Positions 1-33,462 of a stretch of 39,446 nucleotides of DNA are shown here, piece by piece (positions within the stretch are counted from its first letter, which is position 1; each line of letters starts with the position of its first letter). Location: the NCBI GenBank assembly GCA_008632985.1, contig QPGO01000106.1:248001-287446 (forward strand). Direction: 5' to 3'. The notes under the pieces are model-generated. The model did not search any database. It was not told the DNA's origin and worked only from the letters and a program-made list of their open reading frames with translations. This stretch comes from Psammoneis japonica (Eukaryota). Both the position numbers and the translations under genes were made by a program.

Positions 1-19
1 CCAGGCTCGCGGGAAACAG

Positions 20-830
20 ATCACTACACAAACCGTTATTCTGCCAGCAAGAGAATCTTTCCCGCAAAAATTTTGATCACGGCTGGCGGGCGTCAAAAAA
101 GAGTGACCGCTCTATGTCATTGCAGCGCATCTTCTTTGCATCTCGCAATCACAACGTTGCGACCGCAACGTTTGCAACAACGATGTTTCCAGTTGCTGTC
201 GCGGTGATGCAGATGAGGATGATCTGATTGGCGATGTTGACAGCTTCGCATTTTCGGCTCATGAGTTGTGGTCGTGCATTTGTGTGCATTTTTGCATTTG
301 TTCTTTGCATGTTTGTAACAGATGGACTTGCAAGGTTGTTGACATCTTTGTTCCCAAATTTGTCGAGTCTGAGCCCATCACCAAAAACCACTTGGAACAG
401 CCTGAAGGCATGGAAAACCAACCTCTTGCTGCAACTTGCATCGGATTGACCAAGTTTGAAAATTTGCAGAGCACAAGATCCCCCTCCTTTGGGAAATTTG
501 TTCCCAGTGGCTGGGCGGCACTCATCATGCTGCACAATCCAGTTTCATTTCCATTGAGAGATGCGCTCTTGGACATCAGCAACAAGGAGTTGCCGGAACT
601 CTTGAAGCAGACACAACTTGACAAGGCCTCACTCGCAAAACCCAACGCGGCATTTGAGAACCCCCAGCTGGACAAAGCCGTGACTCACCAAGCCTTTTGC
701 GGACAGGGTGCACATCAACTTGAGGCTGTCCCAGAAAACAAGGAGAGTGCTTCAACGGGAGCCGCATTTGAAGCAGATGCCCTTTTCATGAAGGCTCTGG
801 AGGTGCCAAAAGGCTTTGGCAAGTGCAGAG
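20..830 (+). pseudogene. Decayed duplicate of the 5' part (promoter, exon 1, intron, start of exon 2) of the neighbouring lipoxygenase gene
   Basis: Colinear with ~2470-3310 (e.g. aaccgttattctgccagcaagagaatc vs aaccgttattctgccagtaagagaatc). ATG at 183. Intron donor GT changed to CT at 244. ORF 266-916 matches LOX (KVVDIFVP...ALFMKALEV) and then diverges. Many TA/CG to TG/CA changes. Confidence 0.9.
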
Positions 831-1407
831 GAGGGGGGCCAAGTGGCAAAATTGAGGAACAAGAGGAGGCAGAGGAAGAGACGGATGATGTCCAAGAGTC
901 TTGGTTGCCCACCTGACCCAGCAACTCAAAAGGGGCTTCCAGTTTGAGTTTTTCCACAGTTGGTGGCAGTGATGCAATGCAAACAGTTTCCTTTGATCCA
1001 GCACAACGGCTCTTGACAATGTCAAATTTCTGGTCAACTGGTGCAAGATCACATGAGGCTTGGCTGTGCAAACAATGCTCATGCACCAATGGTGAGAGTG
1101 ATGAGACTTGTGCCATGTGTGGGCGGGCGAGTGATCCGGAACCCGAGCAGCGATTAAGACTCTCAGAACAGCGAGCAGCAGGAGTGCATTGGTTGCCGCT
1201 GTGGCTCTGAGTCCCAGCATGTCAGAAGGTGAACGGTGGTTGTGTCTCACGTGCACCTGCATGAACCAAAATGTGCTTCATTTGTCTTTTGAAATTTGTG
1301 GCCAACCCCGGTCCAGATTGGATGCGAGTGCATTGCAAATGCTTGAAGATGCTGGACCACAAGGGGGGCATTGTCAGCAAGATGAGCAATTGGCAGGGGA
1401 ATTGTGA
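830..1407 (+). pseudogene. Decayed fragment of a gene with two RanBP2-type zinc fingers
   Basis: Translations WLCKQCSCTNGESDETCAMCG (~1060-1122) and WLCLTCTCMNQNVLHLSFEICG (~1237-1302) fit W-x-C-x2-C-x3-N-x6/7-C-x2-C. There is an internal TGA at 914-916 and a frameshift between the fingers. Confidence 0.65.
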
Positions 1408-1449
1408 GAAAGGGCAGAGGAAAAGGAGCTTGTTTTACATTTGTTGACA

Positions 1450-1890
1450 TCATGGCAGCAGAACAAAAAAGTGACATTTTTGTTGTGCACACACCACGAC
1501 CTGAAATGCAGCGGCAACATTCTGAACAACTTTGGAGGAAGCAGTTTCACAACCCCACAATGAAATGCAGCAATGGGAACAATGGCAACTCTCACAAGAG
1601 TTGCCTCATCTTTTGATGCGGCAGACAGGAAGCAAGAAAGTGTGAGATGGACTGCGCCCGATCTTGTGAGGCGGTCACGGGTCCTGTGATCGAGCGCGGT
1701 CGTCGCGCCACAAGACCAAAATGATGCTTTGTCATGCAACATGCACTGCCATTCTCTCGGCAAGACCAGCATGTTGTACCTGCAACAAACTTAATTCAAT
1801 CACTGCAGGCCCTGGCCAGCAACCCCTTCCCCATTTGTTGCACAGCGCTGGAGTCTTGCACTTGCGGCGCTGGTTGAGGAGTCATTTCAT
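1450..1890 (+). repeat. Decayed duplicate of the region downstream of the lipoxygenase (~4310-4730)
   Basis: Shared blocks caccacgacctg, gcagtttca, ctctcacaa-agttgcctcatcttttgat, agcaagaaagtgtgaga, agcaaccccttcc, gctggttgagga. Confidence 0.8.
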
Positions 1891-2642
1891 GGCTTGCCCA
1901 CACCGACCACAGAACACTTCAACAAAACAAAGGAAGAACTTGCCAGCTGCAACAGGGTCCAAACAATCTCATTTGCTCTTGAGACAAGAGTTGTGAGCAC
2001 ATTGGCCAAAAACACACAGCTGAGCCCCAGCAACGCCAGAGCGGACCATGTGCATCGCACATCTTTTCCAAGTTTCCAAGAGGCACAACACACGCAAGAC
2101 AGGTGAAGCACAACAGGAGAGACATGACGGGAAAGAGAGCCACTTGGAAGACTCCAGCACAGGCTCCCATTGTTGACATGGGAGTGTCGCAAACATTCCG
2201 ACCAAATGACACGACCACAGCCTGCTGTGAGACTCACCCTGTCATTTCTCTCTGCCTGCCAGTCTTGGCTCTGTGAGGTGTCATATTGCCTGTTTGTCAG
2301 TAACGTTTGGGAGTCCTCATCATCCACAGCTTACTTCAGATTTTTATTCCTGGTAGCGTGCATCTTATCAGCGTCATTGTCGATCTCTCCAGATCGTGCA
2401 ATCGTGCGATCAGCCATCAAGGGCGGCGGGGTTCGGGCCACAATTGAAAGATTTCAGTACACTCTCTGTAGAATGCTACATAAACCGTTATTCTGCCAGT
2501 AAGAGAATCTTTCACGCAAAAATTTTGATCACGGCTGGCGTCAAAAAAGACGTTCCGCCGTGTGTGTGACCGCTCTTTGTAATAGCGTATCTTCTTTACT
2601 TCTCGCCATCATAACGTTGCGACCGTAACGTTTGCAACAACG

Positions 2643-4299
2643 ATGTTTTCTAGTTGTTGTCGCGGTGATGCAGATGAGGATGATCTGATTGGTGATCTTG
2701 ACAGGTTCGTATTTTCGGCTCGTGAGTTGTGGTCGTGCGTTTGTGTGTTTTTTTGTATTTGTTCTTTACAAACGAATCCAGTTTCATCAGTTTGCCCATG
2801 TTTGCAACAGATGGACTCGCAAGGTTGTCGATATCTTTGTTCCCACAATTGTCGAATCCGAGCCCATTACCGAAAACCACTTGGAACAACCTAAAGGCAC
2901 GGGAAACCAACCTCTTACCGTGACTCGCGTCGGATCTACCAAGTTTGAGAATTTGCAGCGTGATCCCTCCTTTGGGAAATTTCCTCCCGGTGGCTGGGCG
3001 GCACTCACCATGCTGCACAACCCGGTTTTGTTTCCATTGCGAGACGTATTCTTGGATATCAGTGACAAGGAGTTGCCGGAACTGTTAAAGCAGACACAGC
3101 TTGACAAGGCCTTGCCCAAACCCAACGTGGTGTTTGAGAACCCCCAGTCGGACGAGGCCATGACTCGTCAAGCCTTTTATGGATTGGGTGCGCATCGACT
3201 TGAGGCTGTCCCAGACAACAAGGAAAGCGCTCCAACGGGAGCCGTGTTTGAAGTAGATACACTCTTTATGAAAGCTCTGGAGGTACGAAAAGGCTTTAGC
3301 AAATACGGAGCGTGTGCGTACTTTGATGGCGACCAAAAGGTTCTCGCCATTGACACACCCGACGGTTTGGTCACACCGAGCGATGGAAGCAAGTGGGAAT
3401 ATGCCAAGTTTGCATGGCGATCCTCTCTGTTCTGTCTCGTGACGGCGGTGGATCATTTGTTTCATCATCATTTTTGGGTTTCGGCTCAAATGTTGCGTGC
3501 CAGCACCGTGGCCTTGACGGAAGACCATGCCGTGCGTCGAGCGCTCCAACCCTTTCTCATGCGCACGGCACTGGTCAACAACCAAGCCGGCAGCGCACTC
3601 TTGCCACGAGAAAGCATGGTGCATCATACTACGAGTTTGACTTGGGCTTCTTTGAAAACCGTAGCGGCAACAACGTACCGCAAGGGACCAGAATGGAAAC
3701 CACTACCAGATCTTGTCAAGAGCAAGGGACCCAAAGTCAATGCATTGATTCAAAATGGAAAGCTTCCCTTGTTTGAAGATGGATTGGAAGTATATGACTG
3801 TTTTATTCATTATTTTGACAAGGTGCTGGGTGACAGCGACGTGACCAAGGATGCTGGATTGGTCCAGTTCTGGTCTCTACTCAAGCAGTACACACTTGCC
3901 GATGATTTGCCCGATTCCCTCAGTCGCCAAGCTTTGTTGGATTGCTTGGCCACCTTTTCCTACCGCGTCACATCGGGACATGAACACGTGGGTAGTGTCG
4001 CAGAGCACATTCAAACTCCACTTCATGGCGCCATTCGACACCGTCCCAGTTCCATTCGTGCCGACAAGCAATCCTATGTTGGCCTCTCCGTTCTCATGGC
4101 CCTGACCTCTCTTCGTACACCGCCACTCATGAGCGACTTTGCAAACTATTGGAAGTCGGACGAGGAACGTGCCCATTGGAAAGTACTGCAAGATAAACTG
4201 AAGATTGTTGTCTTCAATGTGGACAAGCGCAACGAGAGTCGACCCTTCAAGGTGGTTTCCGGCAATCCCCGTATCCTTGAATGTGCCGTGTCAGTGTAA
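2643..4299 (+). CDS. LOX: Lipoxygenase (catalytic-domain-only type), ~516 aa, 2 exons
   Basis: Exons 2643-2704 and 2811-4299 (GT..CAG intron 2705-2810, frame compatible). Motifs: WEYAKFAWRSS (WxxAK), DHLFHHH (HxxxxH metal ligands), HAVRRALQPF, LVNNQAGSALL, GHEHVG, C-terminal ILECAVSV. Confidence 0.85.
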
Positions 4300-4822
4300 T
4301 AGTTTTGGCATCATAGTAGCAGAATAAAAAGTAGCATTTTTGTCGTGCGCGCACCACGACCTGGAATAGTGGCAATAACATTCTAAAGTTATGGAGGGAG
4401 CAGTTTCATAATCCTACAATAAGATAGAGCAACAGGAACAATAGCGACTCTCACAACAGTTGCCTCATCTTTTGATAGATGAGAAGCAAGAAAGTGTGAG
4501 ACGACTGCGCCCTCGTGTTGCGAGCTCCGTTCGACCCATCCACGCAAAGCCTCGTGAGCGACGCGGGACCCGGGACCCGGGACCAAAAATAACACCTCTG
4601 CGACCGACTGTTGATGTTTTGACAACAAAATCAATACTACGCTCGTCCCTGAACCTGTAGGCCATAGCAACCCCTTCCTACTTGCGTGTTACTGTAGTCT
4701 TGTACCTGGTGCTGGTTGAGGAATCGTTTGGCGGATAATTTTACCAGTACCGATTTGCCCACCTTGAACCTATCACAGAACACCGCGCTATTTACGTACC
4801 CAAACGGTGTGCGTCAGCCAAG

Positions 4823-5973
4823 ATGGGGAACCGAATGGCAAGAGAAGATGACAGCGAATCGGAAGGAAAATCTTTGTCTCTTTTTGGAGTTGCTTCAATG
4901 ATCGTTCACGACAAAATACCTAGCCCGATGAGCATTCCAATATGCCTCGACGAGCTCGTCGATTGGACGCAAGATGCATCCGTGACCGCCAATACCCTTC
5001 ACGGAGTACAAGTCCTTCCCAACAAATCTACGTACCCAGTTTTATTTCAAGCCTTTGTGAGAAATAGACGAGTAGTTCACAGAAGTGAGTTATATGGGTC
5101 AGTCGCGTTATTGATGACTTGACTCGCCGCCGTGGCTAATGTTGATGTCGACTACATCCCACCTCTCACTACTGAACTCGTTTTCGTCTTCGCAAGAGAG
5201 GCATACGGCCATCACTCAGAAAGACGTCATTAACTTTCCAGCTGACCATGCATTTGAACGCGTAGCATTTTATGAACAGCATGTGAGTCCATCGTTGATT
5301 CCTTCTTTTGAAGTGGTAAGGTTGCTTTGTTGCTTTCTCTGACACTTCTTGTCTGTAGATTTTGATTTGCTTGGTCTTTTTGGATGCTTTTGACGAGAAT
5401 CAACCCGATGTTTGCAGTGTTGGAGTTGTTTGTACCATTTCTGGGCTGGACTTTTGTATCTACATACGTTTGTTGCGTCGACTAGCACAGCTATCAGAGC
5501 TCACGGAGCAAAGCGTGGGCGCCATCACCAATAAGCCGTCAGACTCGCATGAGTGCGGCATTTGCTTTGATAACCCTCAAGAGACTATCCTACCATGTCT
5601 TCACGGAATGTGCAAGGAGTGTGAAGCAAAATGGGTGGAAACGCACCAGGATTGCCCCTTTTGTCGAGAGCAATACACCAATCGACGTCGAAGACATCGA
5701 GAGCAATGGCAGGTATGTTTGATTATGACATTTCATGTGCTGTGTGCAACTAGACATAATTTGTCTGACGCCCTTTTTCAAACGGCTGCCTAGTTGGAGA
5801 GCTGGAGTCGAAACGATGTTCAGGAGGATGTTCACACCATGGAGCAACAGATCAAGAACTTCTGGGAGGGACGTGTTTACAACCAGAGGAGAAACGGGGC
5901 GGAAGGATTTACCCAATTGAACAAGTCTTTCCAAGAGTCGATTGTCGACGATGGATTTGTGCTCCTTCATTAG
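4823..5973 (+). CDS. C3HC4 RING-finger E3 ligase, RNF141/AIRP2-like, ~293 aa, 4 exons
   Basis: Exons 4823-5084, 5197-5282, 5359-5712, 5794-5973, with GTGAGT/GTGAGT/GTATGT donors and AG acceptors all in phase. RING: CGICFDNPQETILPCLHGMCKECEAKWVETHQDCPFCR. N-terminal MG (possible myristoylation). Confidence 0.85.
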
Positions 5974-6305
5974 AGAAACTCTTTGAAATGAATTATATTC
6001 ACTGTGCTATGATCGCGTTGCAATAGCGATAGGCAAAACCGAAGAGATAGGCCATAGTACGAGTAGCATAATGAGCGTCCTTGTGATTTCATTGCCTACT
6101 TTTTCTTCTATGCATTGTGTGCTATGTTTTGCCGAACGCCAGTGCGCAGTCCATTCATAGGACTACTACGTTTTTAGATTTGATTTTAATCAAGCGCTCT
6201 ACCTCAAGTTTACCGCCGGTGACGAAAACAAGACGGGAAAATGTCGCAGATACACAAAAATGACAGAGCATAGAAGTCGAGCAATTGCAAAACTAATATG
6301 TTGGT

Positions 6306-7157
6306 TTAACCTACTTTCTTTCGAGCCATGTAAAAACTGTTTGCACAACAACAGAAGTCACTTCCCCAAGACACCGCGACGCACAAATCGCCAGGTTCAA
6401 AAAACATTGCTGGACAAGGCCGCCGCGGTGAGCAGTATTCACTTATTGTCTCACCAACAGTACCATACTCTGGAAAAATGAGTTTTTTCGTCCACGAGTA
6501 ACTGTCTCGATAGCTCCGGACCGCCGCTTCAGCGGCTTGAATGTTTTCAAACGGTGGTTGCGCTAAATCGTCCTGTACCGAATCTTGGTCGTCTGGGTTG
6601 TACCACTCCGAAGGAATCCAGTTGCAAGCGATTCGTTCCGAGAGAAACGAAAACTGTACGTCAATGTCGTATTCAGAGCATGCAGATGGGTACTCGGTCA
6701 TTTCGCAATCGATTCTGGTTTCCCCTTTACGTGCTTCCTTGAACTCAAATTCGTCGTCGAATTCGCAAACGTGGCCGTTTCTGCCATAATTCATGTCACT
6801 GGGAGTTTTTCCTACGGAACATTGATGAATGCCGCTGTCATCCACGGTCAGAGTTAGCGTGCGGTCCGTGGTGCGTTGCACCAAACAAAAGTCGCATTTA
6901 AACGCTTGGTAATAAACCTGATACTCTCCGGCGACATTTTCTGATGGAAGAGCCGCAAAAGGCCCTTCATTCTGGAGCAAATCCCACTGCCAGCCATTGC
7001 CAAACTCGTAGTAAACAATGCCTTTCGCCTTTTGCTCCAAAACGCGCTTCACAAGCGCTTTGCGGCGATTTTCGGGGAGTTGGGCCACTGCTCGGTTCCT
7101 TTCTTCTACACACGTTCGCTCCTCCACTTTTTGCCGTTTGGCGAGGGGAGCTTCCAT
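6306..7157 (-). CDS. Hypothetical protein, 283 aa, N-terminal basic NLS-like motif
   Basis: Uninterrupted ORF with normal Tyr usage in an unmutated island. Begins MEAPLAKRQKVE. No family recognised. Confidence 0.7.
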   Translation of the reverse strand: MEAPLAKRQKVEERTCVEERNRAVAQLPENRRKALVKRVLEQKAKGIVYYEFGNGWQWDLLQNEGPFAALPSENVAGEYQVYYQAFKCDFCLVQRTTDRTLTLTVDDSGIHQCSVGKTPSDMNYGRNGHVCEFDDEFEFKEARKGETRIDCEMTEYPSACSEYDIDVQFSFLSERIACNWIPSEWYNPDDQDSVQDDLAQPPFENIQAAEAAVRSYRDSYSWTKKLIFPEYGTVGETISEYCSPRRPCPAMFFEPGDLCVAVSWGSDFCCCANSFYMARKKVG

Positions 7158-7649
7158 TTTTTTCCCTTCGCGTCCGATTGCTGGCTGCTGTGTTCCTTGA
7201 AGATCTACTGACTATGATGTTGTGAGATTGAATGAAAAGTGGGAAGCTGGGAAACCTCACCGTCGGCTGCCATGACATGTCACGAGAAGCGTTGAGAAGG
7301 AAGAAGTCGTGAGTCGTGGGAAAGACAATGCGCGAATGATCACGAAGCGTGACTGAAACATGCGCAACGGCCATTCTCGCTCACATGACATGCGCGGTGC
7401 GCACATCATTGCACTGAGCACTGAGCGTGAAACCGCATCATTGAAGCCATGCGGTGGAATGCAGGGCCCAATGATGCATTGCTTGCTCTTTCATGTGAGC
7501 TCTGATCGTAACATCTCACGGTGATGGAATGCTGACACAGCAACCAGCCACCCAGCAGGGTCAAAAGTGGTCCATCATGCTTTCTCTCATCACTCTCGTG
7601 CACAAAAGAGGTGGGTCCGCAAGAAGGGCACAGAAGATGTGGCTTGGGG

Positions 7650-9680
7650 AGCAGGAGCTGCATCAATGAAGACATTGCAGGAGCCTGGTTGTGGGTTGAT
7701 GAGCCTTGCTGCAGCATTGCATCACATTTCTCATTGCTTTGTTTCTGAGCGAGTGTTGCCCCTCCTCATCAACAAGAAGAAAGCAAGAAAACAACGTGCC
7801 ACTCCCTGTGTGCAAGCAAAGATGGGAGGAGCTCCTCTGAAGCTGAGCTTCAACTTTGACCAACATTGTGGCACTCTGTGTGAAAAAGCAGCAATGTCTT
7901 GGGTGCCCAAGCTGCGACATTTTTAGAAATGAGAGCAGAGCTTTTGAGTGCAGCCGCCGCCGCGTTCTTTGCATCGTGGCTGGCTTTTGGTCTTGTTGAG
8001 CTCAAAAGAGTTGCAAGATGTCACAAACAGGAGGGGAGGGGGGCATTGCTGTCACTCTTGAGAGCTGTGACATTTTTGGCCACACTGTGGAGTTTGGACA
8101 CTCAGTCTGTTGTTGTTGTTGAATTTGTTGGCATCATGATCGCTGCTCTCTTCATCAACAAAGTGGGCTTTGTGCTTGATGACCATCAAGGTGAAAGCTG
8201 ATGTGAGACAAGGATGGTGGCTTGTGTGAATCAACAAGGCCTTGGTTCCAATGGCATGTTTGCCACTTTGCAAGGGTTGTGAGTGCAATCATCATGTTGC
8301 GCAATCTCTGTCTCCATGTTGCTGCTTTTGCAAGCCACAATGGCATGTGATGAAAATGGTGCACAACCCAGGTGCAGCTCTTCAATCATCTGTTGAGCCC
8401 ATTGCTCCTCCTCCTGCTCTGCTCTCTTTCTTTTGAGAGCAGCCTGCTCCAACTCCAGGCAAAACAAAATCATGCAATTGGGGCTTTTGGCAAAACAATC
8501 CTGTCTCAAACTTGTCCATCACTTTTGACAGTTTCGACCACAAAAAGATGCACCAACATGGACAGCGCAGTGTCTCATGTGAACATTTTTCCATTTGTCT
8601 TGAAATTTCCCAACTCAAAGAAGAAATTTAAGCAAGACATTTTTTGACTTCCAAAAGTGCTTCAACTGGAGCTGGAACATGCCGCACATCTGAGCGAGCC
8701 TTTGGCATGCCAGAATCTGTGAAATGGTCAGGTTGTCAGACTTTTGTGAGTGTTTTCACAAGTCCTCACAAAGTGTGATTGTGTCTGTGGCATTTCCTGA
8801 TGACATGCTGGACTGCATGCAGTCAACATTGTGAATTGTCAATGTGTCACTTTCAATCCTTCTGTGCTGTTCAAGCACAAGCGTTTGAGTCCAGCCACAC
8901 TGTGGGCAAGTGGAGTGGTGTGCTGTGTGAGAGGCACATGACAATGACAAGTCTTTTTGCACTGCTTTGTCATGGACATTTGGATGGCAAATGCCCCAAC
9001 TCTTTCAGCAAAAAAAGGTGGCTTTTTGGGTGACTTGAGAGTGAAGGCATCCCCAGGATCATGTGTGCTTTGTCATTTTGTGGTGACAATCTGCACTCAA
9101 ATGCTCAGCGGTGATTCCCAGCATCATTCACAAGTCTCGTTTGGCCAAACAAAACAATGCCAACTTTGCCATTTGGGGATTGTGCACCCTGCTTTTAGTC
9201 AATTCAGTCCTCGTGACTTGGCCAAACTCACCATGTGATGGGTGTTGCGAGAGCTCCACACAATGCCACCTCCGTCATACATTGAGCTTTGATGAAGTGA
9301 CCAAAAAAGGATGTGGCATTGCGGCCATCGCCAAGGCATGTAAATTCGAAGAAAACGTCGTCTTTTGATGCCCCACCGGCATGGCGGGGATGGCCAAACA
9401 GAAAAAGATGGCCTCCATGGAAGCTCGGAGCTGTGAGTTTACAAGCAATCAAGATGGCATTCAAAAGTTGGTCGATTGCGAGATGGCGGGAAAGTAAGAA
9501 AAAGCAGTTTGTGTGGAACTTTGGTTGTTTTGAGTTTGCCTGTGTCGTTTTGCAGGGTGTCCGTGCGTGCAATTCATGAAACATGATGTCTGCTGGACTG
9601 TGACAGCAAATGAGCAATGGCAAACCCATTGTCCTTGGGTTTGTGGTGAAACGGACACAACAGTTTGGCACATGCACTTG
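7650..9680. repeat. Decayed member of a local multi-copy segment (relatives at ~10930-12000 and ~21760-23210)
   Basis: 7650-7760 ~ 10950-11040 (gagctgcatc...cattgcaggagc...tgggttgatgagccttgc). 8270-8330 ~ 11880-11940. 8050-8140 ~ 21850-21945. 8700-9680 ~ 22245-23210 (gtgtgattgtg..tggcatttcctgatgacatg; caactttgccatttgggg; gaagctcggagct). Confidence 0.7.
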
Positions 9681-9689
9681 CTTTGTTCT

Positions 9690-10720
9690 CTGACACTTTT
9701 CTGTAGATTTTGATTTGCTTGGTCTTTTTGGATGCTTTTGAAGAGAATCAACCTGATGCATGCAGTGTTGGAGTTGCATGCACCATTTCTGGACTGGACT
9801 TTTGCATCTGCATGCATTTGTTGCGTTGACCAGCACAGCTGTCAGAGCTCATGGAGCCAAGCATGGGTGCCATCACTGTTGAGCCGTCAGACTTGCATGA
9901 GTGTGGCACTTGCTTTGATGACCCTCAAGAGACTGTCCCACCATGTTTTCATGGAATGTGCAAGGAGTGTGAAGCAAAATGGGTGGAAACGCACCAGGAT
10001 TGCCCCTTTTGTCGAGAGCAATGCACCAATCGACATCAAAGACACCAAAAGCAATGGCGGGCATGTTTGACTGGGACATTTCATGTGTCTGGTGTTGCCA
10101 GACAAACGTTGTCTAACACCCTTTTCCAACTGCTGCGCAGTCAGAGAGCTGGAGTTGAAACAATGTTCAGGAGGATGTTCGCGCCATGGAGCAACAGATC
10201 AAGAACTTCTGGGAGGAGCGTGTTTGCAACCAGAGGAGAAACGGAGTGGAAGGATTTACCCAATTGAACAAGTCTTTCCAAGAGTTGATTGTCGATGATG
10301 GATTTGTGCTCCTTCATTGGAGAAACTCTTTGAGATGAGTTAGATTTGCCATGCTGTGATCGCGTTGCATTGGCAACAAGCAAAACTGAAGAGACATGCC
10401 ACAGTGCAAGCAGCGTGATGAGCATCCTTGTGATTTCATTGCCTGCTTTTTCTTCTTTGCATGGTGCCCACGCCATGTTCTGCCAAAAGCCAGGGCTCAG
10501 TCTGTTCACAAGACTGCTGCGTTTTTAGATCCATTCACAAGACTGCTGCATTTTTAGTTTTGATTTTGATCAAGCACTCTACCTCAAGTTCACCGCTGGC
10601 ACCAAAACAAGACGGGACAATGTCGCAGAAACACAAAAATTGCAGAGAATGGAATTCAAGCAATTGCAAAACTGCCATGTTGGTTTGGCCTGCTTTCTTT
10701 CAAGCCATGTAAAAAGTTTT
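9690..10720 (+). pseudogene. Decayed duplicate of the 3' half of the RING gene plus downstream region (5340-6340)
   Basis: Near-colinear with 5340-6340. RING still readable (CGTCFDDPQETVPPCFHGMCKECEAKWVETHQDCPFCR). Intron donor GTATGT became GCATGT (10061), and stop TAG became TGG (10318-10320). Short internal duplication at ~10501-10557. Confidence 0.92.
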
Positions 10721-10929
10721 TGCAGAATGACAGGTGCAATGGAGACTGAAATGATGAGCTGCTTGTCGTTTCACAGGAACTCTTTGATCGCGACAGCTCA
10801 TGGCAATGGAGTGATGACACAGCATCCACACAGCGGGATGATCAAGTGTTGGTTCATGGTGTGGCTGCTTTCATTGCTCGCACACAAAGATCATAAAAGC
10901 GCTGCAGCTCTGGAGCCACAAAGAGGACA

Positions 10930-12000
10930 AAAAACAACATCACGGAACAGGAGCTGCATCGATCACATTGCAGGAGCTTGGGAATGGGTTGATGAGCCTT
11001 GCCAAAGCATGGCATCAGTTTTTTGTTGCTCTGTTTCTGGTCTTTCCATCATGTTGCTGTCCAAGACTGGCGCAAGGCCAGGAAAATTGTTGCCAAAAAT
11101 GCTCCAGGTGAGAAGCTGTTGATCATGCCAATGTTCTTGCCAAGGCAGTTGGCTGGATCCTCCTCTCCCAATGTGCTCATTGCTTGATGGGTCGTTGTCA
11201 TTGATTGTCATTTTGTGGCTGCAGTTTGTTGCTGTTCTGGTCCCATGCTTTTGATCAAATGTTCCACCTTGTTTTGATGAGTTTTGCATTGCTTGTCAGC
11301 AGAGGAGGAGGGTGGCTGATGCCCGTGCAAGATGAGGGGTGCATTTCCGAGCATCAGACAGACTGGTGCAGATGGGATGCGGAGAGATCCACTGATCTCT
11401 GATCTCTCCTCTTTTTGCTTTCTCTCAGCTCCGCAGTGCATGATTGCCTCTGCCCCAGACATTGATGGTTCATTCTTCCCATCAGCATCCCACAAGAAAC
11501 TTTGACTGGCAACAACACCTTGGGTGACCCAGCCTCAGTCTTTGGAGAGATCAGAGCAGAGCTTGAGTGCAGCCACTTTCTTTGAACCACAGCTTTGTGT
11601 TGTTGTGATGACATTGAAAGTGTTGCAAGATCATGAGCAGGAGATGTTTTTTTGCTCTTGACAGCAGCAGTGCTTTTGCCATTGCTTTGAGCTGCAGCAC
11701 TCATGTGCCCAAAGCTGCTGTTGCAGGGCTTGCTTGCATCATGGCCGCTGCGTTTTTCATCAAATGTCACCAGACTTTGTCAGATGATGGCTGAAAGAAA
11801 AGCTGATGCAAGGGTGGCACCTTGTGGGCAGCAGGATGCCAATGACTTTGGCTCAAATGGTGCATTGCATGCTTGCCATTGCAGGGGTTGTGGGCACCAT
11901 CATCATGCTGCACAATCTCTGTCTCCATGCAACTGCTCTTGTCAACTGTGGTCCACAATGAAAAAATGCATCAACTGGCAGCAGCTTGTCAGCAAGAATC
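10930..12000. repeat. Decayed relative of 7650-8400
   Basis: Shared blocks agagcagagctt..gagtgcagcc, gttgcaagat, caatctctgtctccatg. Minus-strand peptide KSSCMETEIVQHDD vs KSSNMETEIAQHDD. Confidence 0.65.
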
Positions 12001-12627
12001 TTTGAGCCCATCACTCTTCTGCTTTGCATTTTTTATCAGCATGGGTGTTGTGCATTGCAGAGTCTGAGTTGGTCTCTTTGGTGTGGCACCAGGTGGCCCA
12101 ACTCAGCGCCCACCATAAAATAAATGTTATTGCAGAGCATGACTGAGCGTCGCGAAAAAAAAAAGAATCGACTTCTCATCCTGAAAAATCCTCCTCACGC
12201 AATCAAAACAACAACATCCATCACTGTTACACCATTCCCCCCACTTTCCAACTGAACCTATTTGTCTTTTCGCCTCTTGTATATTGATTGGTATGTCTCT
12301 GCGTGTTTTTGCTTTCAGATTGCGTGCCAGCGAACAGAAGATCGCTCTCGTTCCACTTTCTTTGTCGCTGGAAGCTCGAACACGTACAGGTTGGAGCGCA
12401 CACTCGACGTTCGAATGAAGTCGATGCCGATTCTTCTCTTCTTCTTGCGATATAAGTCTCACACCTCATTGTGCACAAATTGACTCTCTGACTCTGTCTG
12501 TCTCTTTCTCTGTGCCTCTCTCTATATGTTCGCTACTTTACTTTCGCTCGCATCTTGCATCCTCGCTTTCAAGAGAAAGAACGCACGTGACCTCACATAA
12601 ATCAAGTCAATCGGTGCTTATCACATA

Positions 12628-16029: not shown

Positions 16030-19000
16030 CTTTTGTGTCCAAAAAATCAACAAGTGAGTCCACCTGTCTCTCCTTTTTAGTTGTGCAAAATTCCCATCAC
16101 AAATCATTGGCTCGCCTTGCCCAGCACCTTGCTCGCTGAAAAATCTGTGAAGAGTGCCTGTTCAGCAGATGGTCATTGTGACTAAGACTCCAATGATGTC
16201 CAGTTTCAGGGTCCTGCTTGCTTCCTCCAATGGACGTGGTCTTTCATGTGTGTCACTTCTTTTTCATGGGCAGCTCTGCAGAGGGAAAGTGCCACCCCGG
16301 GCACATGAGTGTGCAGCCTGCATTGCTGGAGTTGGGTGCAGGTGGTTTTCACACCCAGTTGGGCAGCAATGGCAAGAAATTCTGTGTGCTCATTTTCCCA
16401 TGGGGGAGAATGCAAACTGCACATGCATTTTGTGTGGGGGCTGCGCAACTTGCCACATGGACACATTTTGGGAGAAAGTGTTGACCTCATTTGAGAATCT
16501 GATGTGTCCAGTCAAACACATTTGGACAACCTCCTTTGTGTGGCAGAGGGTGTGCAAGAAGATCACCCTGAAAAACTTGAGCTTGTCTCAAAGTGTGTGT
16601 GCACAGCATGAGGACAAAGTTGTGTTTTTTTGCCAGACCCAGCTGAAGTGCTTGGGTCCTTTGTTTGGTTGGGGCAGCACACAACTGTTGCCTTCATGAG
16701 GCCATCAAGCATGCCACAAAGCCGGGAAATGAGCGCAGCACATGGCAAACACCTTCTGAAGTGGGAGCGGGAATTTGTCAATGTTTGGTCAATTCCAGAC
16801 TTCATCAAACCATTTTTGACACTCACGCAGATGCTCCCAAATGTCAGCAGGTGGCAACAACATTTCAAAATGACAGACCTGTTGCGCTTTGTGGCAGAGA
16901 AAGCTCAACACAGCACACACAGCCAGTTTGCAAAAATCTTGCTCACAAGAAAGTGCTTGGCACCAAGAAGTGCACAATGTGCCAGAGGTGGACATGCAAA
17001 GGGCAAGGCCCTGAGAGGCAGTGAATTGAGCAGCAGCACAGTCCCTGGCTGCTGTTGCTGTTGCACCTGGAGGCTTGTCGCTGCCACCCAGCTTGCCTGT
17101 TGAGCACAATTTGGAGGTTGCCACAATGATGTTGGGCTGCTGCTGTCAGCTGCACAAAGCTTGCAATGTAGAAGCTGTGCAGCAGACATGACCTTGCTCT
17201 CTGCCAGCTTCAAATGCATTCAACCAGAGCAGCAGAAGGACAAGCACCTGTCATTGTGAGCAAAGGGCTCCATTGACTGTGTGCTCAACCCATGTGTTCT
17301 GCAACGGGAGAAAGTTGTTGCAGCAGCTGGCACACATCAAGAAGACAATGCCACCATGCCCCAGTCATTGCAGATTCCTTTGACTGAGTGGCGCCATGAG
17401 CAACTGTGTTGTCCCAGTGACACACTGACAAACATCCATTGCTTGGCACTTTTCTTGGCACAGTGTGTGATTTGTGGTGCACGTGGCATGTGCTGAGTGT
17501 GCAACATTTGTCTCAAAGGATGAAATGTCAGACACAACAACATGGGAAGCCACTGGAAAAGGCAGCTGAGACATGGCTCGTTGGGCAGGAAACCTGTGCA
17601 CAGGCATGGTGGGGCCCTGAAAAATCAAAAAACATGGAAAGGACACTCTGCAATTGTGGGCAGTTGCAATCATTGACCCCACAAAATGTGGGGGGCTGGC
17701 TCTGTTGTGCAGGCACTGCCAGAGTTGTCCACAGAAATGACAACAAAAAGCTTGTGCTCTCAGTGCAGCACACTGACAGACATGCACAGTTGCAACAAAT
17801 TGCACCCTGTCACCAGCAGCACACTCTGATGCTTGTTGTCCCAAGCCATGGAAAAGTGCGCAGCATTGTTTGTCCACTGTCCAACATTGCACAGCCCTGT
17901 TCAGGTGTGTCCAGGAAGCACAACTTCAGAAGGACGTGGCTCTCAACTTGGGCTCATTCAGAGGAATGCTTGGAGCTCCCATGTGCTGCGCGCACATTGT
18001 CTTGCCCCAGATGGCAGTGCAGCACAGCATGAAAACATTGCACGCCGGCACATGTGGTTGCCCATTTCATGCAATTGTGAAGGTGTGTGAATTGCCGGGG
18101 CTTTGGCACAGTGCAAAACCTGAACAAGTGAGAGTTTGGCATGACTCCATGTTTGCAAGACACCACAATTTCTTGGGAAGCAGATTGGCCTCACAATTTC
18201 AACAGAATGGCTTTTGGAGCTCAAAACTTTCTTGGCACAGCATCTCCTTGACAAGAGTGAACAAAAAGTTTGCTCAATGTTTTCATGTTGTGTGTTGGAA
18301 ATGTCATGTTGTCAGGGCAAGGAGAGCCACAATGTGGTCACAAATGCACACTGTGCATTGCTTGAGCCAACTTGCATTGAAACAAGTTTGTTGTTCCTTT
18401 TGCATTTCTGCAGGAAATTTCACCCTTTCAATTTTTTTCTCCCTTTGTCTGGACCCATGATGACAGGGGGGGGGGGGGTCACACAGCCTCCATGGTGGCT
18501 TTTTGTTGTGACAACATGGCCAATGGGGTCATGTTCACCTCTTCATCCTGCCAAAGACAAGCCTGCTAAATCCATTGATGCTCCTTTTCATGATGGCCTG
18601 GGTGTGAGAGCTGCTGTTGGCATGCAATTGTCATCTGTGAAGAAACTTTCTGCCTGCCTTGGATGCTCCCTTGGGCAGTCTCTTGATCATGCAAACATCA
18701 ATGGTGAAGAAGAAGAATCATCTGACCTCTTCTGCACTGGTGCTAAAGACGGTTCTGAAGAATTCTCTGATGACAAAGAAGAGTCTATTTTGGTTCTCCA
18801 TGGAATCAAGCAGCACAGAATGGCTGCCAGAGTTCATTCCCCTTGCATGGACAACAAGGCTGCCAAAGGTTTGCAGGTGTCAATTGACATGTGCACAAAA
18901 CTTGCCACATTGTGAATGTGTGCTTTTTCTGATCTGTGAAAGAAAGGCTGTTGAAGTTGGAGGCAACTCACTTGTTCACAAGCTCATCCACTCATGTTGC

Positions 19001-20150
19001 AAGGCTTGGCACCTGCCTGTCATTCATGAAAAGAAGGAGCCACCCAACAAACCCACAGCTGATGCTCCTGTCCCTCCCAAGGCTCTCACTGACCATGAGG
19101 TTGGTTCTCTGTGCTGTGAGAATCCAATGTGGCAAGCAAGTGCAGCCAAGGTTGCAGACAAGTTTGTGTCTTTTGGTCCAGAGCAAACAGAACAAACCAT
19201 GCAGTTAGCTCCAACTGTGATGCAATGACCCAAGTTGCACAAATGTTGGTGACTTGCAAGAACTGTGACACTCGCTGCAAACACTGGACACTCCAATGGG
19301 TCAAGTGTTGGAGTGGTGGCCATGCACCCTTGTTGCTCCACCCCAAGGCCCAGTCTGAGAAGTGCATTGGGGATCATTGAAAGAAGGAAGGTGCCTTCAG
19401 GTGCTGTTGCTGCAACACACCCATTGGGTTGGGAAGGAATGCAGGTGCCAACACAAGGTTTGGAAAGCAACACAATGAGCATGAGAAGTGTTCAAAACTC
19501 ACTGATTCCAAGCACATTGGCAATGCTTCCCATTCTTTTTGTCCATCCAAAGAAATCAGCACCAAGATGTGAAAGAGCAAATCAAGTTACAACAGAGAGG
19601 AGGATGGTGTGAGGATCTTGAGCTCATCACACTCTTTTGGTGGTCACACAGTGACACAGACACGTCACAAATTTGCTCACCTCAGAAGGCCCTGATGGCA
19701 TGTTCCAAAGCTCTTTGGTTCGAGTGTCCAAGAAATTGGCAATGGTTGGTCACTTGGCCAATCTCTGTTTTGGAGAAGACTCTCCAGGATTTGAAAGCTT
19801 TGGTTGGCTTCAGATTTGCTTGAACCAAAAACCAATGGCATCTCTCTGCAACTTTGAAAGCCACTGTCTCACAGGCATCATCCTCTTGTGCAAAGCTGTT
19901 GCAGATGTGTCAGTCAAGAAGAACAATGAGCTGCGTCAGTCTCAGCACCAAAAGAGGATGCACAACACACAACTTCTCAAACATCACTTGCCTTTTTCAC
20001 CAGATTCCAGTCCAGAGTTGTGGCACTCCAGAGAGCAATTGCCTTCTCCAGCCATGGAGTCCATCCTGTTCTTGCAGCAGCGACAACATCTGTGAGTCAT
20101 CCTTTGCAGTGATGAAGCATGGCACCCACTCTTGCTTTTCATGCCAATGA
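16030..20150. other. Heavily TpA/CpG-depleted block, probably a decayed large coding element (unidentified)
   Basis: Only a handful of TA dinucleotides in ~4 kb. ORF translations are Tyr-free and Cys/His/Gln-rich, with some protein-like remnants (e.g. EEEESSDLFCTGAKDGSEEFSDDKEESILVLHG). Family not recognised. Confidence 0.45.
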
Positions 20151-20324
20151 GAAGAAATGGCACTTTTGCCTGAACTCCATCCCTTTGCTGCACCTGGTTC
20201 TCTGTTGTTTCATCCTTCACCTCTCTGGTCTCAACTGGGTGCTGAGAGCTTCAGGACCTGATTTCCCAATGAGCAGTGCTGTTTGCACTGCATGTCACAA
20301 CCAATGCCCCCAGGAAACCAAACC

Positions 20325-20515
20325 AAGATGCACCTGAGACTGAGACTGCCAACACCCTTCCCAGAGCACAAGCCCTTCCCAACAAATCAACACACACAGT
20401 TTTGTTTCAAGCCTTTGTGAGAAACAGATGAGCAGTCCACAGAAGTGCAAGAAAGTGTGTGAGATGGACTGCACCCTTGTGTTGTGAGCTCCATTCCACC
20501 CATCCACGCAACCTT
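20325..20515 (+). repeat. Decayed mosaic of two fragments from the RING locus
   Basis: 20325-20446 matches 4970-5086 (cttcccaacaaatc...tttcaagcctttgtgagaaa). It is immediately followed by a match to 4486-4550 (gcaagaaagtgtg...gagctcc...acccatccacgcaa). Confidence 0.75.
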
Positions 20516-20839
20516 GCAAGTGAACAAACTGCCCACAGTTGCATGCTCTGGGGGCAAGACTAAAAGAAAGACTGCAACTTTGTGACACTGTTTTCTAGAA
20601 GTGAGAGTCATCCTGGAAGTCCAACTTGGCACACTGTCACCAAAGATGAAGCATGTGAAACCAAATGCAATTGCACACATGGCAAACTTGTCAGCCCCCT
20701 CAAGTCAATGAGACAGACATTGAGTTGGCTTGACCCAATTTACTCTCTGGCTGCATTCTGTCACTCCAGTGTGACAACGGAGCCCTGACAACCTGCCTCA
20801 AACCCATTGGGACAAGGGAACTGGATCCAGGCTGTTCAT

Positions 20840-21745
20840 CAGCCATCACAGACATTGTGAAGTGTCATCTCCACTGGACCATCTCATTTCGTGCCACCAC
20901 ACATGACTTCAGTTGTGACATCCACCAGATTGCATTCAAATTGGACATGCCCAGTGAGTGACTTGCCCATTGTCACTGACTCCCTGATGGCATGACAACA
21001 AATCAAGTTGGATTTTTTCTTCAAAGTCAATTCCGGACTTTGAGTGTTGTGGACAACTGACATGTTGCACCCACAAACATGTGACAGTCCTGCCAATGGC
21101 ACACCCATCATTCTTGACTTGTGCCTTGGACCACGCAAGGCTTCCATGTCCTGCTTCATGGCTGCAAACTTGGCCCCAAAGACCACATGACCAAGGCCAT
21201 GTTCACACAGCAGATGAAATGGCCGGTGCATGAGCGTCTCATTTTTTTGTCATTTGCATGATCCAAGTCAACAAACAAATGCAGATCCACCTCCAAACCA
21301 AGAAGTTCTGGTGCATTGGTTGGGACAGCTTTGTGCACTTCCCCACAGAATGGCTTCCAGTCACATTCCTTGAAGTCATCCACATCTGTTTCTGGACACA
21401 TCGGATCCAGCACCAGCCTGGCATTGTGTCTGGCCTTTGAGCATCTGCGCGCATGTGGACTGCCTCAAGATGTTCCTCTCTGGGCATTGTGAGGAACAAG
21501 GCAAGCATGGAAACCTCCACAATCTGGATCAGCCAAGCATGGCTTCCATCCAAAGTGATGCATGCAGGAGGGGGCAGGTCGTTCTGGAAGGATGCCCTTG
21601 CACTCTTCAAACCACAAAGCACACGCTTGACCATTGCACACTTCCCCAACAAGTTGGTGCCAAACTCTGGGCCCAGAGTTGCAGTGATCTTCTCACTGTC
21701 AGGTGCAGAGAGACACAGGCATTTTCAATTTCCGCAGTCTCAACC
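20840..21745 (-). mobile_element. Decayed Ty1/copia (CoDi-like) RT-RNase H remnant with internal deletion
   Basis: Peptides AEIENAC, KRVLCGLKSARASFQNDL (ALYGLKSAGASFRNHL), LFVDLDHANDKKMRRSCTG (FVDSDHAGDKxTRRSRTG), MEALRGPRHKSRMMGVP, NMSVVHNTQSPELTLKKKSNLICCHAIRESV. Conserved Tyr residues are replaced by Cys/His. Confidence 0.9.
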
Positions 21746-21759
21746 TCTGAGCCATGCCA

Positions 21760-23210
21760 CCTGCCTGGCTTTGTGTGTTGTGGCAGCGGCAGCAGCAGCA
21801 ACGCAACAAAAAAGGTCACATGAAACAATGTTGCAAACAAGGGGAATGCTCATTCTTGACAGCTGCAAGGTTTTTGGCCACACATTGAACTGCGACACTC
21901 ATGCACTGAAATCTGCTGTTGTTGGATTTGTCAGCATCATGGCCCACTTCTGCTCCTCTCTTCATCTCAAGGCGGGCTTTGTCTGCTGCTGGTGACCCCA
22001 CTGAGAAGGAAGCTGGTGCAAGGACATTCAGGGTGCTGTCACTGTGCCTCACAGTCTTTGTTGTTGTGCCACTGCTCAACAAGCATGGCCTCCTGTGATG
22101 AAAAAGCATGTCACCCAGGCAGCTCATTGGCTGTTGTTTGAACCCATTTTTTGTGCTCACCCCAATCTCTGCTTTCTGTCTCCAATCTGCTTTCTGTCTT
22201 CATCAATGTGGCTGTTGTGACATTGCGCACTGCAATGAGTCATCTTTGGCATGCCAGGATCTAAAACAGTCAGGTTGTCAACTTTTGCACTTGGCTGCTT
22301 CTTTCAAGCCCTCAAAGCTGGCTGCATCCTCAGAGGCTGCTTGGCTTTGCTTTCTGTGGGTCAGTCCTTGGCAGTTGGAGCCACACATGTGTGCGCACAC
22401 TGGACAACACATTGTGGATGGCTTTCTCAATGTTCCTCTCTTCATCCAGTGTGATTGTGGCCATGGCATTTCCTGATGACATGGGCTGCATGGTCAACAT
22501 CATCAACACATCACTTCCAGTTGTCCTGCCCTTTGGCTTTGCATCTCTGGTCAAGTGCAAGAACTTCAGCCCAGCCACAGTCATTTGGGTTGCAAGCAAA
22601 ATGACAACAGTCAAGAGAGATGGCCTCTTTGGTGGCTTGCAAGTGAAAGCATCACACCAGGGTCATGTGCCGTTGTCATTCTGTGGTGGAAATGTGGGTG
22701 ATTCCCAGTCTCATTCACGGATGTCATTTGGCAAAAAAGAAAGGACTGAACAATGTCAACTTTGCCATTTGGGGGGATCTGGCACCCTGTTCCATCAACT
22801 CAGTCATGCACCCCCATCACAGGTTGAGTGTCAACCAAGCCGACAAAATGTCCGTCAAGGATGCGGCGCTGGCCGTCGCCAAGACACGCAAAATTGAAGG
22901 AAACATTACATTTGACACCTCCAAGGCGGGGACGGCCAGTTCAAAAAGACGGCCTCCACAACAAGAAGCTCGGAGCTACGAGATTACGATTACTCAAAAC
23001 GGCATTCAGAATTCGGTCGATTACGAGACGGCGCGAAAGTAACAAAGAGTAGTTCGCGTAGAATTTTTTGGTCATTTTGAATTTTTCTTTTTCGTTTCGT
23101 AGGGCGTCCATGGATACAACGTGGTGTCTGCTGTGGCATTAAACAACAAACAACAAATCCATTGTCATCGGGCTTGCGGTGAAACGGAAGCAAGAGTTTT
23201 GGTTTGGCAC
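21760..23210. repeat. Relative of 7930-9680; includes the 3' end of an unknown + strand ORF ending at 23042
   Basis: Colinear blocks with 8050-8140 and 8700-9680. The portion after ~22830 keeps CG/TA and reads ...EARSYEITITQNGIQNSVDYETARK*. Confidence 0.65.
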
Positions 23211-23260
23211 ATGTGTGGAGATTATCGTGGCTCGGCGAAGACCACCTTGGTAAATCCATG

Positions 23261-24067
23261 CTAATCAGAGCTTGCAGCTCTTTCTTCCATTTCAATCTTT
23301 TTCCCAAACCACGATCGGAAGAGGACAAGATTGGGTCTCGTTAACTTCGACAGACCCATGCAGTTGCATGCCCAATGGCAATGTCCCCGATCCTGTTCCC
23401 ACACTTCGCGGAACGACTTCCCTTTCCACTTGCCTCCCCACTGAATGATCGTCGAGTCGCTGGGAGAAGAAGTCGAGGATGAAGACAAGGGGACAGCATT
23501 GCTGCCGCAGCGCCTGGACTTTATGGTTGACGCCACCGATCCACCTTTTTTCCATTTCTTCTTGTTGTGTCTCCATTTCTTCTTATAGTGCCGTCGCGGA
23601 ACCCGTCGAAACTTTCCAATCTGCTCTTCAATGGGCAGCTCTGGGAGTTGTAAGCCAACAGCACCCTGCCCAAGACGGATCGGGTAGAATCCCGGCATGT
23701 TGTGTGTCGGCAAGGACAGATCATTCCATTTCGCGAGATTGCATCTGTCGCACAACGGCAAAAGACACGCCGTGCTTTCCCCTCGAATAAAGACGTGTGC
23801 CCCCACTGTAGGCTTTCTCTTGCGACAACGTTCGTTGCAGCATTGATCGGGCCAACATTGCCCCGTTTCGCCCTCCCACTGCTCCTTGAAAGACTTGCAG
23901 GGCGGACCAGGCTTGAACCTGGAGCTTCCAACCATGTTGCCAGCAACGTCACCTCTTCGTGATACGATTATCGACCACGTGCATGAGCGCCTCACCAACA
24001 ATGCGAGTACAAGATACCAATATATGGATGAAAAGAATCTGTTTGTGTTAAACATCAGAGCATCCAT
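23261..24067 (-). CDS. Putative HNH/His-Me-finger-like Zn-binding protein with a C-terminal ExoX-C/DUF3820-like motif
   Basis: ORF open to 24334, with the first plausible ATG at 24067. Contains WPDQCCNERC...GAHV...LLPLCDRCN and IQWGGKWKGKSFREVWEQDRGHCHW (cf. FGKYKGxxFxEVxxxDxxYxxW). Confidence 0.55.
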   Translation of the reverse strand: MDALMFNTNRFFSSIYWYLVLALLVRRSCTWSIIVSRRGDVAGNMVGSSRFKPGPPCKSFKEQWEGETGQCWPDQCCNERCRKRKPTVGAHVFIRGESTACLLPLCDRCNLAKWNDLSLPTHNMPGFYPIRLGQGAVGLQLPELPIEEQIGKFRRVPRRHYKKKWRHNKKKWKKGGSVASTIKSRRCGSNAVPLSSSSTSSPSDSTIIQWGGKWKGKSFREVWEQDRGHCHWACNCMGLSKLTRPNLVLFRSWFGKKIEMEERAASSD

Positions 24068-33385: not shown

Positions 33386-33462
33386 CTTCGCAGACAATGG
33401 AGCAAATTGCCAAAAAGAATGACAATCAAGTTGGCCAAAGAGCGTGGTGCTGGTTGCTCTCC

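Follow-up and report, generated by a model that had tools for sequence, protein, structure and literature searches.

Why would one copy of a duplicated gene lose nearly all of its TpA dinucleotides, and many of its CpG dinucleotides, while the copy it came from keeps them? The question is raised by a stretch of 39,446 nucleotides from Psammoneis japonica, presumed to be a diatom (contig QPGO01000106.1, positions 248,001 to 287,446; this whole stretch is hereafter the window), in which parts of a lipoxygenase-family gene (LOX) and of a RING-finger gene occur twice, intact in gene clusters and eroded in gene-free DNA. The original prediction on this DNA held that such host duplicates are erased by one and the same TpA/CpG process, that TA is the ancestral state, that a single copy of each pair is hit, and that this suggests either targeting by chromatin domain rather than homology pairing or selection on the parent copy. 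Both duplications sit where it had put them (24-830 with 2476-3310, and 5322-6354 with 9678-10733), and its examples can all be read in the sequence: stop TAG changed to TGG, splice donor GTAT to GCAT, EQY to EQC and tacatacg to tgcatgca in the RING copy, as well as the two LOX strings. As described below, the erasure is better read as aimed by position, i.e. by the domain in which a copy sits, than by homology between copies or by foreign origin, and the loss of TA and that of CG are probably the work of two processes.

Compositional domains of the window

The window has a G+C content of about 49% and is eukaryotic DNA with GT..AG introns. Gene clusters alternate along it with long gene-free stretches of very unusual composition. 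In 500-base steps, the observed-to-expected ratio (o/e) in gene clusters is 0.3-0.75 for TA and about 1 for CG, whereas in gene-free stretches it is 0.00-0.15 for TA, 0.0-0.5 for CG and about 1.9 for TG/CA. Two-state segmentation on TA/(TA+TG+CA) delimited four large TA-depleted domains, namely 115-2282 (TA at 5 of 461 TA/TG/CA steps; its start may lie to the left of the window), 7215-12114 (18/1104), 16082-22904 (11/1613) and 27270-33509 (19/1488), together with three small ones to the right of 34,900. The large domains, of 2.2-6.8 kb each, add up to 20,131 of the 39,446 bases (51% of the window), and TA makes up 0.7-1.6% of their steps versus 17-21% in gene clusters. When they are pooled, TA is found 53 times against 1337 expected (o/e about 0.04) and CG 256 times against 1181 (o/e about 0.22), and TG plus CA reach 4609 against 2514, a surplus of 2095 that approximately balances the shortfall of 2209 in TA plus CG. 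Inside the domains TAA and TAG together occur 76 times and TGA 1016 times. The borders are sharp and close to the flanking open reading frames (ORFs), about 60 to 510 bases from their ends.

Parent genes, erased copies and the direction of change

The LOX parent (2643-4299, forward strand) is intact, with an intron ending at 2810 and an open frame at 2812-4299. It has 19 homologues of at most 51% identity, 17 of which carry PF00305; its own ORF falls under the Pfam cut-off. A spliced GT..AG joint, 2721|2811, is present in a contig of sequencing run X2, which is labelled 'DNA?' and yet looks RNA-like, with GT..AG splice joints and, at 6273, a loose end of poly-T. Donor 2721 puts the ATG at 2643 out of frame. 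With donor 2705 the N-terminus resembles those of the homologues ('GDLDRW' versus 'GDMDRY' or 'GMDRW'), so that homology favours the latter; the two donors may reflect alternative use of 5' splice sites. The RING parent (4823-5975, forward strand) has four exons (4823-5084, 5197-5282, 5359-5710 and 5792-5975) encoding 293 amino acids. Its GT..AG joints are found in X2 contigs, its spliced frame of 293 codons is open, and the product matches RING families of Pfam (E = 7e-11).

The erased LOX copy (24-830, forward strand; counterpart of 2476-3310) comprises the 5' flank, exon 1, an intron 27 bases shorter than that of the parent and the first 500 bases of exon 2. It is followed by a filler at 831-1443, 613 bases that stand in place of 994 coding bases (3311-4304), and by an erased copy of the LOX 3' flank at 1444-1906 (forward strand; counterpart of 4305-4753). 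The right part of that flank, 1681-1906, aligns with 4549-4753 at a score of 77.5 versus a null of 29.5. The copy thus lies in tandem with its parent, with flank, intron and 3' flank in the same order. Over the LOX copy and the flank block 1444-1659, 35 of 37 TA and 28 of 54 CG were lost. The parental RING segment (5322-6354, forward strand) extends from the end of intron 2 through exon 3, intron 3, exon 4 and the 3' flank to the last 49 bases of a convergent gene; its erased copy (9678-10733, forward strand) has lost 41 of 47 TA and 33 of 46 CG, leaving TA at an o/e of 0.10. Further duplicated blocks were found. The erased block 9307-9680 (forward strand) corresponds to 22857-23215, which flanks the minus-strand gene 23261-24295 on its 3' side, and the part of this third pair that was tabulated (22905-23215 versus 9360-9680) shows loss of 8 of 10 TA and 15 of 22 CG. 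Two fragments of the interval between LOX and RING lie at 20344-20511 (forward strand) in swapped order, 20344-20447 matching 4984-5087 and 20447-20511 matching 4486-4547, and they have lost 7 of 7 TA and 10 of 11 CG. The distance between the parents, which lie in gene clusters, and the erased copies is 0.2 to 16 kb, and parent and copy are only about 80% identical.

Polarity was assessed for LOX by alignment with 10 homologues. The parent agrees with them at all 17 invariant columns, which the copy does not: it deviates at 4 of these 17 and at 4 of 15 near-invariant residues (8 of 32 conserved positions), the deviations including Y123C and Y165C, in which the tyrosine codons TAT and TAC became TGC, and R119H, R159P and G166R. 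In addition, both candidate splice donors of the copy are destroyed, two thirds of the coding sequence are missing, and the rest carries insertions of 4, 2 and 3 bases and codon differences of which 40 are non-synonymous and 24 synonymous. Since the LOX parent is intact and conserved and the copy is broken at conserved residues, splice donors and coding length, these comparisons indicate that TA and CG are the ancestral states and TG and CA the derived ones. For RING, a search of longer proteins yielded no outgroup, and the same polarity follows from the parent being an intact and spliced gene. The claim that TA is ancestral and has been lost is thereby borne out. As the LOX homologues are at most 51% identical, the single-copy genes of the window, instead of orthologues, were used as the control for synonymous and intronic sites.

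Specificity of the changes and sparing of the parents

The fate of dinucleotides was tabulated over six parent/copy alignments, with 14 dinucleotide classes as controls, from which bases lying within a TA or CG of either copy were left out. Of the 101 TA of the parents, 91 had changed in the copies, 81 giving TG or CA; of the 133 CG, 86 had changed, 75 giving TG or CA. Control dinucleotides were changed at 261 of 1721 sites (AT 20/93, AA 28/177, GA 18/143), so that TA was changed far more often than the very dinucleotides against which the original prediction had proposed to measure it (Fisher's exact test, TA versus controls p = 1e-57, CG versus controls p = 2e-34). The subset of five alignments without the third pair gave 83 of 91 TA changed (37 to TG, 36 to CA) and 71 of 111 CG changed (34 to CA, 27 to TG). 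In the opposite direction, the copy has TA at a parental TG or CA at 2 sites, and CG at 11. Outside the TA and CG steps of both copies, 120 of 1737 sites differ, with 76 transitions and 44 transversions. In a simple survival model the per-site rate of TA change is at least about 30-fold above background and that of CG change 9- to 20-fold (two main pairs). Loss of TA was faster than that of CG (90 versus 65%, p = 6e-6).

Changes to TG and to CA are not arranged in significant strand runs (LOX P = 0.31, RING P = 0.72); a post-hoc split of the LOX alignment at 2811 gave 8 CA : 1 TG versus 5 CA : 8 TG, a weak difference (p = 0.03). Among the residual TA of the domains a 5' A precedes 2 of 53, versus 135 of 470 in gene clusters, with TTAA, CTAA and TTAG in excess. 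Within pairs, the A hit first was in 5'-TAC at 33 of 58 sites, versus 48 of 144 for TAA, TAG and TAT. The two measures of context agree only partly, and the numbers are small.

The parents show no comparable depletion. Their aligned non-coding parts have TA o/e values of 0.69 (LOX) and 0.74 (RING), versus 0.10-0.12 in the copies, and are in this respect like other short spacers of the gene clusters (0.66-0.89); the original prediction had named equal TA depletion at neutral parental sites as the result that would speak against it. The LOX coding sequence has a TA o/e of 0.46 in its duplicated part and 0.37 in its non-duplicated part, and that of single-copy ORFs is 0.38-0.57. One member of each pair is hit, as had been claimed, and it is the copy in the gene-free domain.

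At 2964-3144, contigs of both X2 and another run, X1, contain a second variant of the LOX parent, with 13 differences in 181 bases. Among the differences listed (2994-3030), 6 of 6 fall at third codon positions, which points to an expressed, constrained allele or paralogue. Twelve sites at which parent and copy differ as TG versus CA, in either direction, were considered as possible hits on the parent and set aside, as an ordinary TG>TA change followed by a fast TA>CA change in the copy gives the same picture in similar number.

Position or homology as the aiming rule

Domain targeting rather than homology pairing is supported by the DNA around and between the duplicated blocks. The filler 831-1443 lacks LOX homology (local alignment score with the parent 28, maximum of shuffled sequences 32.5) and is nevertheless erased, with TA and CG o/e values of 0.05 and 0.34; together with the filler 1660-2282 (TA o/e 0.06) it is as depleted as the homologous blocks. 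Composition becomes normal again from 2284, 192 bases ahead of the point at which homology begins in the LOX parent.

The third duplication is a natural experiment; a domain border runs through its source. The source extends over 21809-23215 and the copy over 8004-9680. In the left, older part (8004-9300, forward strand, corresponding to about 21809-22857) both copies are depleted, and in the best-aligned blocks they share TG/TG or CA/CA at 65 steps and are discordant at 3, which indicates that this DNA was already depleted when it was copied. In the right part, the source (22905-23215), which the border at 22904/22907 leaves on the side of normal composition, keeps its TA and CG, whereas the copy has lost most of them, as given above. 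The parental segment (22857-23215, forward strand) is non-coding and has o/e values of 0.47 for TA and 1.39 for CG. This pattern indicates that the border at the source has not moved since the duplication and that normal DNA was erased only at its new site, in the gene-free domain. As this parent is non-coding, selection on protein cannot account for its escape.

Erased DNA decays stepwise. The sample holds a second version of the LOX copy, an allele or a paralogue, which at 277-278 reads TG, against CA in the window copy and CG in the parent; among the substitutions listed for it, 6 of 9 are further TA>CA and CG>CA changes.

TA loss and CG loss

The notion of a single TpA/CpG process was not supported. 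In the 5' part of the LOX copy (the first 335 bases, covering 5' flank, exon 1 and intron), 10 of 12 TA but only 2 of 19 CG were lost (p = 8e-5), whereas in the exon 2 part (the next 500 bases) the losses amount to 15 of 15 TA and 21 of 28 CG; CG loss differs between the two parts with p = 2e-5 (Fisher's exact test). Segmentation on CG gave borders shifted by 20-250 bases relative to those of TA, and CG-retaining islands exist within TA-free DNA at 2-273, 1124-1250, 1619-1706, 2034-2282, 7215-7452, 9322-9566 and 27270-27483. Moreover, the ratio of TA to CG loss varies between pairs (4.0 versus 1.6). TA and CG loss are thus probably two processes aimed at the same domains, of which TA erasure is the faster and the wider.

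At one of these islands, 7215-7452, DNA free of TA but normal in CG occupies what is presumed to be the promoter side of a minus-strand gene, 6306-7157 (ATG at 7157), and an X2 contig reaches 7276. The erasure of TA seems to extend as far as the 5' end of this active gene, or into it; the poly-T end at 6273 would be the poly(A) site of the gene.

Candidate mechanism and alternatives

The observed direction, dinucleotide specificity, one-sidedness, sharp domains and separability of TA and CG loss are probably to be explained by two domain-targeted processes acting by position, a reading we favour with some confidence. In this scheme, two context-specific mutation processes would act continuously on any DNA within long gene-free domains, one turning TpA into TpG or CpA (A:T to G:C) and the other turning CpG into TpG or CpA (G:C to A:T). 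Together they would account for a loss, relative to expectation, of about 96% of TA and 78% of CG, and for the doubling of TG plus CA. Segmental duplication would drop host-gene fragments into a domain, where they would be erased like their neighbours, and the parents in the gene clusters would escape. The depleted domains are presumably silent chromatin, CG loss would be deamination of methylated cytosine, and TA loss would be enzymatic. Candidates for the latter may be a TadA/ADAT2-type DNA adenine deaminase or thymine oxidation at TpA, which would leave identical sequence patterns.

Several observations weigh against this scheme. Depletion does not simply scale with age, as the oldest pair (background 47/229) keeps 2 of 10 TA and the LOX pair (background 63/796) keeps 2 of 37. 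The parents are probably not absolutely immune: positions 3030 and 3246 are TG in the LOX parent of the window, TA in the variant contig and CA in the copy, consistent with two TA>TG changes in the parental allele of the window, both synonymous. The concordance of 65 to 3 in the third duplication comes from best-aligned blocks only. Every erased host segment of the window is a duplicate, which is compatible with duplication as the trigger. Finally, segments 21809-23215 and 5322-6354, and likewise 4984-5087 and 4486-4547, are joined as patchworks in the domains, as possible cargo of a mobile element.

The last two points lead to the alternatives that deserve most weight. Host fragments might have been captured by a mobile element (Helitron-like, by Pack-type transduplication, or as a non-autonomous, long-terminal-repeat-like unit bounded by a repeat, here called X), the element being the target. 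The patchwork joining of unrelated host fragments would fit this, as would the direct repeats X at 7648-8429 (forward strand) and 10944-12034, which flank the composite 8430-10943, match each other with a score of 313 versus a null of 32.5 and have a third, partial copy at 21809-22035. However, a search of the 80 ORFs of at least 90 amino acids in depleted DNA (ORFs of the four large domains and another three from the smaller depleted stretches to the right of 33,500) matched no transposon family of Pfam at E <= 0.01; among the 10 ORFs searched at E <= 10 nothing beyond a sub-threshold zinc ribbon appeared; no terminal inverted repeats of at least 40 bases were found; and the LOX copy is in tandem with its parent with the order of flank, intron and 3' flank preserved. 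For the longest ORF, of 308 codons at 31685-32611, no relatives were found among 1.84 billion proteins (HMMER), and the atlas pointed no more than weakly to Plavaka/Transposase_21 (score 0.86, 130-137 shared features). We consider capture by an element unlikely. The statement that non-transposon duplicates are targeted holds in so far as the copies derive from host genes and retain introns and flanks; the patchworks may have travelled as mobile-element cargo. A trigger by duplication itself, as in repeat-induced point mutation (RIP), whereby both copies would be mutated and selection would remove lineages with a hit functional parent, appears less probable still. Besides the duplicate nature of all erased host segments, it has on its side a 276-base repeat, 33463-33738 and 36891-37166, that is partly mutated in both copies. 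These are 93% identical, their 19 differences are all transitions with 6 discordant TG/CA steps, and each lies at the edge of a depleted stretch and is rich in GCGCGC palindromes; these differences indicate that both are decaying independently from a source that bore TA and CG, probably a small mobile element caught early in erasure. A duplication trigger is nonetheless difficult to reconcile with the erasure of non-homologous filler, with untouched parental introns and flanks, with near-complete erasure (TA at 11 of 1613 steps in domain 16082-22904) despite pairs that are only about 80% identical, and with a third-pair parent that is non-coding yet spared and an erasure border that falls inside a duplicated segment. 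The stepwise, independent decay of the two versions of the LOX copy also fits poorly with one burst followed by selection, and in Bigelowiella natans, discussed below, a target is single-copy (10.64898/2026.01.13.699255).

Two further explanations are very improbable. The TG and CA steps could be unreal, modified CpG and TpA bases having been miscalled by a long-read basecaller, and the window does show a one-base deletion by a T run at 8640 and a few substitutions relative to X1, as long-read assemblies may. The contigs of X1, which were assembled from exact 31-letter words, have depths of 32-65 and may derive from the sample used for the window's assembly (the platform is not on record). They show no difference from the window over 801-2532, which spans the border at 2282 into the parent, nor over 9020-9729 and 10256-12200; over 7287-8833 there are 3 substitutions and one 1-base gap. 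In addition, the copies carry transversions and indels, and the products are split evenly between TG and CA. We regard such an artefact as highly improbable. The least credible explanation of all is that the copies were reverse-transcribed from RNA hyper-edited from A to I. Change of A to G with a 5' T resembles the neighbour preference of RNA-editing deaminases, as noted in the B. natans preprint (10.64898/2026.01.13.699255), but the copies retain introns, the flank with the promoter and sequence past the poly(A) site, which refutes it; both strands are changed within one copy (37 TG and 36 CA over five alignments), and the unrelated DNA around the copies is equally erased.

Comparison with known systems

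The closest precedent comes from B. natans, a chlorarachniophyte, in which integrated DNA of giant viruses and virophages undergoes hypermutation restricted to TpA (Mettrop et al., bioRxiv 10.64898/2026.01.13.699255). Of the 231 mutations that newly arose in two integrated viral regions, which are silent and one of which is single-copy, 230 were A:T>G:C and all lay at TpA, at a rate about 1000-fold above baseline in mutation-accumulation lines, and a deaminase of the ADAT2-like (TadA/ADAT2) kind was proposed (10.64898/2026.01.13.699255). The present case shares with it a near-exclusive A:T>G:C change at TpA that gives TpG or CpA (here 81 of 91 changed TA) and confinement to blocks within otherwise normal DNA, visible as clustered windows of low TpA and high CpA plus TpG. 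It differs in several respects. The targets in B. natans are viral, whereas here they are pieces of a lipoxygenase gene, of a RING gene and of the 3' flank of a gene; depletion is mild there (TpA rho 0.45) and near total here; here TA loss is spatially coupled with CpG loss over half of the window; and the rate was measured there in mutation-accumulation lines, whereas here it is deduced from old pairs in one sample. Host-gene substrates, spared parents and position dependence are what is new here. In the full-text literature searched, which leaves subscription journals largely outside, no description of TpA erasure in diatoms or other stramenopiles was found.

In RIP of ascomycete fungi, CpA is turned into TpA and both repeated sequences are mutated (PMC2621366). 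The present process resembles it in that transitions specific to a dinucleotide ruin duplicated DNA, gene duplicates among it, with a strong skew in dinucleotide composition as the result. By contrast, TA is destroyed here and not made (81 TA to TG or CA against 2 in reverse), only the copy in the gene-free domain is hit while the parents keep TA at the o/e values given above, and mutation is not limited to the duplicated stretch, both fillers (831-1443 and 1660-2282) being erased. RIP, moreover, is premeiotic, depends on methyltransferases of the RID/DIM-2 type and stops below a certain identity; the erasure described here goes on far below it.

Decay of CpG in methylated repeats yields CG>TG/CA changes in silent DNA, and the CG changes observed here have this form (75 of 86 to TG or CA, with a CG o/e of about 0.22 in the domains). 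It explains the CG half only, since TA loss is faster and reaches stretches that keep CG. In Phaeodactylum, transposons carry repressive histone marks and are mostly untranscribed (PMC4504042). APOBEC3 edits vertebrate retroelements (PMC4866542), which is likewise a deaminase-type, context-dependent hypermutation that inactivates unwanted DNA, but that editing is C>T on one strand at reverse transcription, whereas here A:T>G:C changes affect both strands of resident chromosomal DNA.

The value of the parent/copy pairs is that, unlike repeat families, they give the ancestral base at every site. They fix both direction and specificity, TA being changed at about 90% of sites and control dinucleotides at about 15%, and set a lower limit on the rate, about 30-fold above background per site. 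The aiming rule they point to is location: it is not foreignness, as host genes are hit, nor homology, as parents are spared and non-homologous neighbours hit. The search for the machinery would thereby narrow to something recruited by a domain-wide chromatin state and distinct from CpG methylation. The domain borders, as the third pair indicates, have held their position since an old duplication. Should the process be general, the genome actively destroys misplaced gene duplicates, which bears on the growth of gene families, and the pairs offer ready-made loci for direct tests. More tentatively, and at somewhat less than even odds in our view, chromatin-directed DNA editing might erase TpA in any DNA lying in silent domains, whatever its source, without a partner sequence and apart from cytosine methylation, in both stramenopiles and rhizarians, as an old system of defence and pseudogene disposal of the SAR (stramenopile, alveolate and rhizarian) lineage. 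Such editing would decide the fate of duplicates, those landing outside an active gene cluster being destroyed long before ordinary decay.

Other features of the window

The visible content of the domains consists of host-gene fragments in patchwork order, the low-copy repeat X and tandem repeats. Long ORFs are expected there because TAA and TAG have been erased, and the 308-codon ORF was accordingly taken as a by-product of this erasure and rejected as a gene. Domain 27270-33509 contains tandem repeats at 29786-30401 (units of about 210 bases) and 32871-33378 (about 185-240 bases), the copies of which mostly share TG or CA (65 concordant versus 6 discordant steps in the first), indicating that they were duplicated after depletion.

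Coverage by X2 is zero over 1-2442 and almost zero over 7327-12200, low cover that is no evidence of silence. The depth of X1 is about 32-37 over 801-2532 and 9020-12200 and 63-65 over 5909-8833; depth is not equal to copy number, and the contrast might reflect haplotype-specific sequence in the erased copies. One X1 contig joins 830 to 3101 with 12 unplaced letters.

Scans with Rfam and for tRNAs gave no match in the window. About 27 tandem copies of a 42-base unit lie at 35392-36531, within the long open frames 35191-36552 and 35421-36824. The stretches 38530-39446 and 25239-25475 / 38044-38279 show repeats of 108-114 bases with a Ser/Pro-rich translation and a 240-base segment, 81% identical, common to gene 25286-26296 and the gene at about 38035-39269, which look like a small family of repetitive, low-complexity proteins.

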